Source: Escherichia coli
GTDB taxonomy: Bacteria > Pseudomonadota > Gammaproteobacteria > Enterobacterales > Enterobacteriaceae
Assembly (NCBI RefSeq): GCF_030013595.1
Contig: NZ_CP122768.1
Strand: one strand, 5' to 3'
DNA length: 64,000 nt
Shown here in pieces: positions 15,498 to 16,176 of this stretch. The notes beneath the pieces were generated by a model. That model saw only the letters and a list, made by a program, of their open reading frames with translations. It was not told where the DNA came from and made no database searches. The position numbers and the translations under genes are program-made. The first letter of the stretch is position 1. The number at the start of each line of letters is the position of its first letter.

Positions 15498-15590
15498 GAC
15501 GTAAAAAAACCGACTTTGCGTCGGTTTTTTACTTTCCAGCCCTGAGTTGGTGGCTCTGGCTGGAGTGAGAGAGCTCTTATCTAACAGTTC
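15498..15590 (-). ncRNA. agrB: agrB-like small RNA repeat unit (antisense regulator of dinQ), approximate boundaries
   Basis: Repeat unit ggacgtaaaaaaaccgactttgcgtcggttttttactttccagccctgagttggtggctctggctggagtgagagagctcttatctaacag with palindromic terminator; near-identical copy at 15732 and partial copy in the dinQ 5' region. Confidence 0.55.
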
Positions 15591-15731
15591 AATACTATTA
15601 GCCAGTGGCTAACATTGCAAGAATTAGCGATTTCTTCAGCTGGAGAAGGGACAGTTTGCTATACATGTTGGTGAAAGAGGATTTATATACTTTCATCGGG
15701 TCGCTGCCGTACCAAGCCTTGTCCGAATCCG

Positions 15732-15825
15732 GACGTAAAAAAACCGACTTCGCGTCGGTTTTTTACTTTCCAGCCCTGAGTTGGTGGCTCTGGTTGGAGT
15801 GAGAATGCCATCATCTAACGCATCA
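15732..15825 (-). ncRNA. agrA: agrA-like small RNA repeat unit, approximate boundaries
   Basis: Second copy of the repeat including the same terminator palindrome (aaaaaaccgacttcgcgtcggtttttt). Confidence 0.55.
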
Positions 15826-15881
15826 ATGCTAATACCATACTGAAACTATTGCAAGGACGTGCTGGTTTTATAACCTGCATG

Positions 15882-15901
15882 TACTGTATGATTATCCAGT
15901 T
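15882..15901. promoter_or_regulatory. LexA box (SOS operator) upstream of dinQ
   Basis: tactgtatgattatccagtt contains CTG-N10-CAG with the TACTGTAT half-site. Confidence 0.65.
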
Positions 15902-16092
15902 AGCTCTGAGGCATTTTCACTCTGGTAATGCGCATAAACGCTTTCAAAGTCCTGGTCAGAAGTACGGGTGGTGCCGTTAACTGATGCTCTGGCCGGAGTG
16001 AGAGAGTTCTTATCTAACAATGAGACATGCGCCGTGACAGGCAGTGGATGAGTAAGCGGATGCATTCTCACTCCATCGCATGGAGAAAACGG

Positions 16093-16176
16093 GTGATTGA
16101 TAAAGCAATCATCGTTCTTGGGGCGTTAATTGCGCTGCTGGAACTGATCCGCTTTCTGCTTCAGCTTCTGAACTGA
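16093..16176 (+). CDS. dinQ: SOS-inducible small membrane toxin DinQ (27 aa)
   Basis: GTG-initiated ORF encoding IDKAIIVLGALIALLELIRFLLQLLN, a single hydrophobic helix; downstream hairpin shared with convergent gor. Confidence 0.6.
   Translation: MIDKAIIVLGALIALLELIRFLLQLLN

Follow-up and report, generated by a model that had tools for sequence, protein, structure and literature searches.

Which of two closely related antisense RNAs is the antitoxin of a small toxin gene, and is the answer the same in every strain? The question is raised by a locus in a 64,000-nucleotide stretch of Escherichia coli DNA (assembly GCF_030013595.1, contig NZ_CP122768.1; the whole stretch is here called the window), in which the toxin gene dinQ and two small RNA (sRNA) genes, agrB and agrA, lie between arsR and gor. 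A first-pass annotation had recognised here the known trans-antisense control of an SOS-induced membrane toxin, and the match to the dinQ–agrAB locus of E. coli K-12 is borne out by Rfam, by NCBIfam, by the flanking genes, by the LexA operator and by the leader site at which AgrB binds. We are confident, with a probability of roughly 0.96, that the locus is the dinQ–agrAB type I toxin–antitoxin module of the E. coli chromosome at its customary site, the arsR–gor interval. Within it, agrB is predicted to be the antitoxin that matches dinQ in this strain, and agrA is a non-matching copy predicted not to repress. The dinQ–agrA–agrB system is already known, a textbook case of a type I toxin–antitoxin system under SOS regulation, and is annotated in RefSeq, Rfam and NCBIfam; the annotation is correct but ordinary, and the locus as reported needs no new explanation.

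Identity of the locus

The identity and arrangement of every sequence element (Table 1), as well as the predicted pairing strengths given below, were obtained for this strain itself. The agr genes had been described as minus-strand, agrB-like and agrA-like repeat copies attached to palindromic terminators, and both are confirmed: each matches the Rfam AgrB family RF02891 from end to end, well above its gathering score of 40, and there are no further hits to this family in the window. The names were also assigned correctly, agrA being the copy nearer to dinQ and agrB the one nearer to arsR. Their terminators read AAAAAACCGACTT(T/C)GCGTCGGTTTTTT at 15504-15530 and 15738-15764, forming an A6-CCGAC-N5-GTCGG-T6 hairpin. 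The agrB promoter was read from the sequence, with the 5' end of the RNA model as reference point (8 of 12 in the promoter scan score), and the agrA promoter by analogy with it, in a stretch identical to K-12; consensus-like -10 and -35 elements are reported in the K-12 paper (PMC3567139). The predicted fold of agrB (-30.1 kcal/mol, z = -4.95) leaves the 5' antisense region mostly unpaired, followed by an internal stem and the terminator, and that of agrA reaches -22.9 kcal/mol, with an A·C mismatch that weakens the internal stem. Both genes are divergent from dinQ and do not overlap it; the 5' ends of agrB and agrA lie 402 and 168 nucleotides, respectively, upstream of the repeat in the dinQ leader.

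The 27-amino-acid product of dinQ belongs to the small hydrophobic single-transmembrane toxins of the DinQ family: it passes the NCBIfam DinQ equivalog NF041472 (54 bits; cut-off 30), is 100% identical to K-12 DinQ and is annotated as WP_001295215.1 in a near-identical genome and in K-12. A Shine-Dalgarno (SD) sequence, GGAG at 16082-16085, precedes the GTG at 16093 in sequence identical to that of K-12, where mutagenesis established the GTG, and not ATG codons, as the translation start (PMC3567139). The gene occupies the chromosomal position between arsR and gor that marks true dinQ as opposed to the dinQ-like (dql) genes, and the layout is that of K-12; the gene order annotated in MG1655 (arsB, arsR, dinQ, gor, rlmJ) is also that of the window. 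Matches to the 879-bp intergenic region are found in 5,422 of 5,426 complete E. coli genomes, with 99.9% identity to a pig isolate. The comparison with the K-12 locus that had been proposed as a check returned 95.1% identity to MG1655, the same arrangement and an identical DinQ. The window differs from K-12 by no more than two substitutions across the segment that runs from the agrA promoter to the dinQ stop codon, and both, lying between the LexA box and the stop codon, are neutral: U28 retains a G·U pair with G94, and CTT and CTA are synonymous leucine codons.

In K-12, dinQ is under LexA control (PMC3567139). The CTG-N10-CAG LexA box proposed upstream of dinQ is present and identical to the K-12 operator, and it overlaps the dinQ -10 element (TATGAT, 15887-15892) and transcription start. 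We scored the window with a matrix of 20 positions made from 20 E. coli operators of the literature, a set that is not curated and that leaves dinQ out (the training sites score 12.7-27.3 bits). The box is the top hit among ~64,000 window positions, with 23.9 bits against 19.9 for the best of 20 shuffles. The matrix was used in place of the bare CTGT-N9-CAG motif, which occurs 11 times in the window where 4.9 are expected and is not significantly enriched. By sequence, then, dinQ carries a LexA operator, and LexA binding and induction are predicted. The published heterology index (HI) of the K-12 operator is 4.83, and a second operator with an HI of 13.82 is reported close to the first (PMC3567139); a weak LexA-like site beside the main box, the third-best matrix hit in the window, is, we infer, probably this second operator. 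The second-best hit, at 14.8 bits, is a perfect palindrome, CACTGTCTGATAAAACAGTG, at 56942-56961 between ftsX (55715-56800) and rpoH (57045-57899). It falls inside the shuffle range (maximum 19.9) and is treated as chance.

Antisense pairing with the dinQ leader

Repeat analysis returned one family of direct repeats with three copies of 34 nucleotides, at 15553-15586, 15787-15820 (79% identical to the first) and 15986-16019 (94% identical to the first). All three copies claimed by the first-pass annotation are therefore present, and the third does lie in the 5' leader of the GTG-initiated dinQ, where it is the published AgrB binding site. The claimed core of ~45 nucleotides, which starts ctgagttggtgg (15542), is valid for the two agr copies only, the dinQ copy being 34 nucleotides long; upstream of GCTCTGG this copy has no significant similarity to the others (local alignment score 13; shuffles average 13.7). 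The agr copies also sit in longer, 114-nucleotide repeats (15487-15600 and 15721-15834) that are 88% identical. Pairwise alignment of the 34-nucleotide cores gives 32/34 identities for agrB and dinQ, 25/34 for agrA and dinQ, and 27/34 for agrB and agrA, whose variant string, ctggttggagtgagaatgcc, is found at 15790-15809.

Duplex prediction shows the 5' ~32 nucleotides of the agr RNAs to be complementary to G88-A119 of the dinQ leader, the stretch to which the AgrB binding site was mapped in K-12 (PMC5066626). Of these 32 positions, agrB of the window forms 30 Watson-Crick (WC) pairs, one G·U pair and one mismatch, at -57.0 kcal/mol, and agrA forms 24 WC pairs, four G·U pairs and four mismatches, at -39.6 kcal/mol. 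The corresponding values in K-12 are 31, 0 and 1 at -57.0 kcal/mol for agrB, and 25, 4 and 3 at -41.5 kcal/mol for agrA. Published experiments in K-12 found that toxicity is counteracted by agrB only and not by agrA (PMC3567139), and that agrA RNA neither closes the SD hairpin nor inhibits translation in vitro (PMC5066626); the authors of the earlier study write that agrA "has partly degenerated" (PMC3567139). Since the window agrA pairs as poorly as the inactive K-12 agrA, the suggestion that substitutions in its core separate an inactive from an active antisense RNA is supported for the window. No other agrA target was found in the window, in that no site lies within three mismatches of the agrA pairing region.

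When the 5' 34 nucleotides of the sRNA were shuffled, the full-length duplex energy weakened from -83.1 to a mean of -44.6 kcal/mol. The full-length prediction had paired 76 nucleotides of each sRNA with leader positions 23-119, as though homology between agr units and leader were longer than the repeat. We judged this extension to be chance, because about -44 kcal/mol remains after the 5' shuffle and because the upstream alignment score is at the shuffle mean. Separately, the duplex has an A·C mismatch at position 9 of the core that is kept, across species, in 9 of the 11 distinct leader/agr pairs. There, C96 of dinQ (15994) meets positions that are T on the plus strand (15561 in agrB, 15795 in agrA), and C96 pairs with G26 within the leader.

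To follow the leader in published coordinates, +1 was placed by mapping the SD at G184-G187 on GGAG 16082-16085 and by the AgrB site at G88-A119; the processing site that gives the translatable +44 form lies near 15942. The minimum free energy (MFE) fold of the +1 transcript pairs 16-28 with 94-106 exactly, which is the published lock between leader elements 1 and 2 (1:2), and pairs 173-178 with 182-187, which is the 3:4 hairpin, leaving the SD with an unpaired probability of 0.05.

The mechanism proposed for this strain follows these elements. LexA bound at 15882-15901 would keep dinQ off until DNA damage. The primary transcript, starting at about 15899, would be untranslatable, with elements 1 and 2 paired and the SD hidden in the 3:4 hairpin. 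Removal of the first 44 nucleotides would free element 2 to pair with element 3, opening the ribosome site and allowing the 27-amino-acid membrane peptide DinQ to be translated from the GUG at 16093. The constitutive 84-nucleotide AgrB RNA (15584 to 15501) would pair through its first 32 nucleotides with leader positions 88-119 (15986-16017), capturing element 2, so that the 3:4 hairpin re-forms and RNase III cleavage is promoted. AgrA (15818 to 15735), a paralogue whose pairing region is mismatched to this leader, is predicted to give no repression. In K-12, only the +44 RNA is translated, and AgrB binds to it, closes the SD, blocks translation and directs cleavage by RNase III (PMC3567139, PMC5066626).

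Several points weigh against transferring this scheme to the window. LexA control, processing, toxicity, and repression by AgrB and not by AgrA are presumed here from experiments in K-12, and it is from K-12 experiments only that DinQ is known to be toxic through membrane depolarisation and ATP loss, that the sRNA relieves this toxicity and that duplex cleavage depends on RNase III. The MFE fold of the +44 form lacks the published 2:3 duplex and still has a closed SD hairpin, with 2:3 pairing possible at -16.9 kcal/mol. Because folding did not reproduce it, the activating 2:3 step depends on the published data from selective 2'-hydroxyl acylation (SHAPE) and probing. The promoter scan returned neither the agr nor the dinQ promoters, and the terminator scan did not return the agr terminators, because the thresholds of both scans are stricter than these sites. 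Lastly, agrB of the window has a change that K-12 agrB lacks, the C at 15575, which results in a G·U wobble with U109, with the predicted energy unchanged.

Three further observations concern the surroundings of these elements. In the terminator hairpin common to dinQ and gor, an A-T pair (16199 A, 16217 T) replaces the T-A pair of K-12, a two-sided change that preserves the stem. Minus-strand open reading frames (ORFs) called "hypothetical protein" are annotated in some RefSeq genomes opposite the dinQ leader or across agrA (L004 570-743, L020 308-523 and L024 599-772 among our comparison loci; 15892..16071 is the equivalent in the window); they are probably spurious, given that they overlap known RNA features and are inconsistently annotated. 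Finally, an Rfam match to the shuA/chuA 5' untranslated region thermoregulator at 5316-5347 on the plus strand (60.1 bits; threshold 58) shows that the window carries the chu haem-uptake locus, which K-12 lacks, and this fits a lineage that is not K-12-like.

Table 1. Positions of the elements of the dinQ–agrAB locus and its flanking genes in the window
Feature	Position	Strand	Details
arsR (ArsR gene)	14997-15350	-	231.5 bits to ArsR subfamily
agrB sRNA gene	15501..15584	-	5' end 15584; Rfam RF02891, 108.1 bits, model positions 1-84 of 84
agrB terminator	15504..15530		rho-independent, palindromic; inverted-repeat arm I1; equals the terminator helix in the Rfam alignment and in the fold
Hypervariable patch, agrB	15571-15578		
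agrB promoter (putative)	15592..15620	-	-10 TAGTAT (15597 to 15592), 17-nt spacer, -35 TTGCAA (15620 to 15615)
gor pseudo-copy	15660..15712		53 nt, between agrB and agrA; real copy 16445-16497; repeat D3, 83% identical
agrA sRNA gene	15735..15818	-	5' end 15818; Rfam RF02891, 99.7 bits, full length
Hypervariable patch, agrA	15805-15812		
agrA promoter (putative)	15826..15854	-	-10 TAGCAT (15831 to 15826), 17-nt spacer, -35 TTGCAA (15854 to 15849)
Weak second LexA-like site	15860..15879		TGCTGGTTTTATAACCTGCA; 13.2 bits
Main LexA operator	15882..15901		TACTGTATGATTATCCAGTT; CTG 15884-86, CAG 15897-99
dinQ transcription start	15899		published +1
dinQ primary (+1) transcript	15899..16226	+	about 330 nt; 3' end set by terminator
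Leader element 1	15914-15926	+	published 16-28; U16-U28 (K-12 C28); locks element 2 in +1
AgrB site, third repeat copy	15986-16017 (repeat 15986..16019)	+	published G88-A119; repeat D2
Leader element 2	15992-16004		published 94-106; within third repeat copy
Hypervariable patch, dinQ leader	16004-16011	+	within third repeat copy
Leader element 3	16065-16076	+	published 167-178
Leader element 4 with SD	16080-16085	+	published 182-187; SD GGAG 16082-16085
dinQ coding sequence	16093..16176	+	GTG start, 27 aa, MIDKAIIVLGALIALLELIRFLLQLLN, then stop
dinQ (+) and gor (-) terminator hairpin	16193..16223		common to both genes; inverted repeat I3 and terminator scan
gor (glutathione reductase gene)	16230-17582	-	793.3 bits

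Variation of the antitoxin match among strains

The rule that AgrB is the antitoxin and AgrA a degenerate, non-functional copy derives from K-12 alone, and we lean towards another history for agrA. Instead of being a decayed agrB, agrA would have kept the older pairing sequence; the dinQ leader of K-12 and the window would have gained an agrB-type patch, probably by gene conversion within the three-copy repeat family, displacing agrA, and the copy that serves as antitoxin would depend on the strain. This history refines the explanation given above and does not contradict it, agrB still being the predicted antitoxin here. It was examined in 22 comparison loci, taken from other E. coli genomes and from a single scan across genomes that represent species. 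The scan yielded E. albertii, E. whittamii, Escherichia sp. E1V33, two Citrobacter and others, each with AgrB-family hits.

Differences between the repeat copies cluster at core positions 19-26, a hypervariable 8-nucleotide patch that adjoins the conserved element 2 on its 3' side. Four types of this patch occur in dinQ leaders: type I (AGAGTTCTT) in the window and K-12, type II (ATAGTCGTC) in E. albertii and ATCC 11775, type III (AATGCCATT) in Res13 and DEC9B, and type IV (AATGCCCAC) in APEC 102026. In every locus with a single agr gene, outgroups included, the copy in the agrA position, 167-168 nucleotides upstream of the leader repeat, pairs with the leader through 29-31 WC pairs of 32; E. 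albertii, Escherichia sp. E1V33 and the two Citrobacter are among these. Loci with two agr genes generally combine a matching with a non-matching copy. The match is distal in the window, K-12, NCCP13717, HCP5S3_I2 and APEC 102026. The proximal copy is the best match in E69, 2012C-4606, 06_3235, DEC9B, SCU-301 and, less sharply, O157 (28-30 WC pairs, -50 to -57 kcal/mol). All of these but O157 have a distal agrB that is of type I and does not match (26-27 WC pairs, about -40 to -45 kcal/mol), and in O157 the poorly matching distal copy is of type IV (27 WC pairs, -44.7 kcal/mol). E. whittamii is an exception, in that both of its agr copies pair about equally (-56.6 and -56.4 kcal/mol).

Partners also appear to change together. 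Among 11 distinct pairs of leader and matching agr, 96.9% of cells pair, a percentage that is inflated because the better-pairing copy was taken as the partner in two-agr loci (the single-agr rows are unbiased), and this selection counts against the proposed history. In eight of the 32 intermolecular pairs both partners have changed; seven of the eight lie in the patch, and this co-variation was reached by 0 of 500 shuffles.

Allele frequencies were counted in 5,426 complete E. coli genomes by means of short allele-specific queries in which every 28-nucleotide seed was forced across the patch. RefSeq complete genomes are a clonally biased sample, which again weighs on the other side, and the figures are descriptive only. 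The dinQ leader is of type I in 1,681 genomes, type II in 418 and type III in 1,922. The distal-agr promoter, indicative of the two-agr arrangement, is present in 3,841, and the distal agrB has the K-12 core in 2,709 and the window-type core in 458. At least 1,486 genomes (2,709 + 458 − 1,681; at least 27%) must therefore have a type-I agrB beside a dinQ leader that it does not match, and three (NZ_AP018808.1, NZ_CP025916.1 and NZ_CP025892.1) were seen directly in the lists of both type-III leaders and K-12-type agrB. Among the loci sampled, those with this combination have their match in the agrA-position copy.

The patch sequence AAUGCC, which is shared by types III and IV and by the window agrA, is complementary not only to its antisense partner but also to invariant sequences beside leader elements 1 and 3. 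It lengthens both intramolecular helices of the leader and makes them stronger, 1:2 reaching -32.0 kcal/mol (otherwise -23.5) and 2:3 reaching -25.7 kcal/mol (otherwise -20.3). This accounts for a perfect 14-nucleotide inverted repeat between agrA (15795-15808) and dinQ (16062-16075). Together with the outgroup data, the helix energies suggest that the agrA-type patch is older and that the type-I patch of the dinQ leader and of agrB in K-12 and the window is derived, most simply by gene conversion. The direction of this change was read from a few outgroups and from helix energies, and the role of the proximal copy as antitoxin in the strains listed above is predicted from complementarity.

A bolder form of this history, to which we give slightly less than an even chance, is that the identity of the antitoxin is not fixed at all. 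The patch would be exchanged among the three repeats and would decide which agr copy matches, agrA of the window would be a displaced older antitoxin, and the two-agr array would reflect recurrent switching of specificity by gene conversion. If so, and we hold this corollary no more firmly, the window agrA would match the leader allele of ~35% of E. coli and would not be a decayed copy. Such switching would further imply that a AATGCCAT patch placed in the K-12 dinQ leader favours an agrA-type RNA over AgrB. A literature search confined to open-access full text gave no report of strains differing in their matching copy, and the 2013, 2016 and T1TAdb papers do not mention it. The dinQ genes of E. 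coli and Shigella are described as "almost 100% similar" to that of MG1655, with leader alleles unmentioned (PMC3567139, PMC5066626), and the T1TAdb paper, which records agrA "in some bacterial strains", selects whichever partner is computed to be more stable.

Judged by complementarity, the rule that AgrB is the antitoxin appears valid only for the roughly one-third of E. coli genomes that have a K-12-type dinQ leader, this strain included. Should the reversal be real in vivo, position would be a misleading guide for annotating agrA and agrB, and knock-outs would have different phenotypes in different strains. The locus would then also illustrate, on a small scale and in nature, how a toxin mRNA and its antisense RNA co-evolve by repeat exchange.

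The spacer between the agr genes bears on how the second copy arose. It contains a fragment of gor whose local alignment score is 61, compared with a shuffle maximum of 28, and which still encodes a 17-residue stretch resembling Gor. The fragment is present in all seven other two-agr loci tested (E. whittamii included) and absent from five single-agr loci, and we interpret it as a leftover of the duplication that created the second agr gene. The two gor sequences lie 785 nucleotides apart and the two agr genes 234, spacings that would result if 785 bp of agr–dinQ–3' gor had been duplicated in tandem and the additional toxin copy then lost through a 551-bp deletion. Divergence of the agr units is very uneven, with 51/52 identities in the terminator and stem, 26/32 in the core and 22/38 in the promoter, as would be expected if the duplication is old and its transcribed part is still being homogenised. 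A minus-strand ORF of 32 amino acids at 15598..15696 starts with gor-derived residues, and is probably not a gene.

Several length classes of the locus were seen in the search of E. coli genomes. Some E. coli have a single agr (L003, L004), and arsC replaces arsR on the far side in L004, L005 and L027. In L005 (E. coli C25; 412-500), the agr core is fused directly to the core of the dinQ leader, and the dinQ ORF is retained without its own promoter. The deletion in this class removes the agr promoter, both LexA sites, the dinQ promoter and the first ~87 nucleotides of the leader, and probably silences the toxin. The fused class made up about 3 of 25 evenly spaced rows of the search.

It is unlikely that agrA also works as an antitoxin in this strain by virtue of a pairing region that differs from that of K-12 agrA. 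Four core positions do differ, the gene still matches the RNA family over its full length and has kept a promoter-like sequence and its terminator, and four of the eight positions without WC pairs are G·U wobbles. Nevertheless, the pairing is no better than that of the inactive K-12 agrA, and the internal stem contains the A·C mismatch. Plasmid-borne dql toxins were considered as targets of agrA and rejected, five plasmid leaders pairing no better with agrA than with agrB (-31 to -42 kcal/mol). We give almost no credence to the idea that the repeats are non-functional intergenic sequence, the CTG-N10-CAG match a chance one and the true product a 49-amino-acid ATG ORF (16027-16176), which is in the same frame and was the original annotation (PMC3567139): bare CTGT-N9-CAG motifs do outnumber expectation, but both RNAs and the 27-amino-acid peptide have family-level matches, the operator is the top LexA-matrix site in the window, RefSeq annotates the 27-amino-acid product, and the mutagenesis that identified the GTG start has already refuted the longer ORF in K-12 (PMC3567139).

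Comparison with known systems

The closest relative is the dinQ–agrA–agrB locus of K-12 MG1655 (Weel-Sneve et al. 2013, PMC3567139; Kristiansen et al. 2016, PMC5066626), which has the same genes in the same order and orientation between arsR and gor. DinQ, the LexA operator, the agrA and dinQ promoters, leader elements 2-4, the SD and the start codon are identical in the two strains. They differ at one base in the 84 of agrB (C15575, which is T in K-12), in the core of agrA (GGTTGGAGTGAGAATGCC in the window, GACTGGAGTGAGATAGCC in K-12) and at leader position 28 (U in the window, C in K-12). The spacer between the agr genes, with its gor fragment, is the most divergent part and includes a 4-nucleotide indel.

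The loci of E69, DEC9B, O157, ATCC 11775, E. albertii, E. whittamii and C. youngae share with the window the toxin, the architecture of the leader and an agr family member 167-168 nucleotides upstream of the leader repeat. Unlike the window, these other Escherichia and Citrobacter loci have either one agr gene or two of which the proximal matches dinQ, and their patches are of types II-IV where that of the window is type I.

Plasmid dql genes of Enterobacteriaceae, a family described previously (PMC5066626), resemble dinQ of the window in having a homologous 5' leader and a small hydrophobic toxin. Matches to dinQ-like dqlB are found on 2,492 plasmids, 2,136 of which are conjugative. The five examined here (L006-L010) include IncX1, IncX3, IncFIB and IncI-gamma/K1 plasmids, and one of them, pSE34, has two copies. 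Their leaders are only ~66-75% identical to that of the window, and pairing with agrA and agrB of the window is not specific, with no consistent preference for either sRNA and energies well short of the approximately -58 kcal/mol of matched agr and dinQ.

The tisB–istR-1 system is unrelated to dinQ–agr in sequence and has a single antitoxin RNA, and the two are likened by description only. In the account of the dinQ authors (PMC3567139), they have in common a LexA-controlled toxin mRNA whose inert primary transcript is activated by 5' processing, a divergent, trans-acting antisense RNA, cleavage by RNase III, and a small inner-membrane peptide as the toxin.

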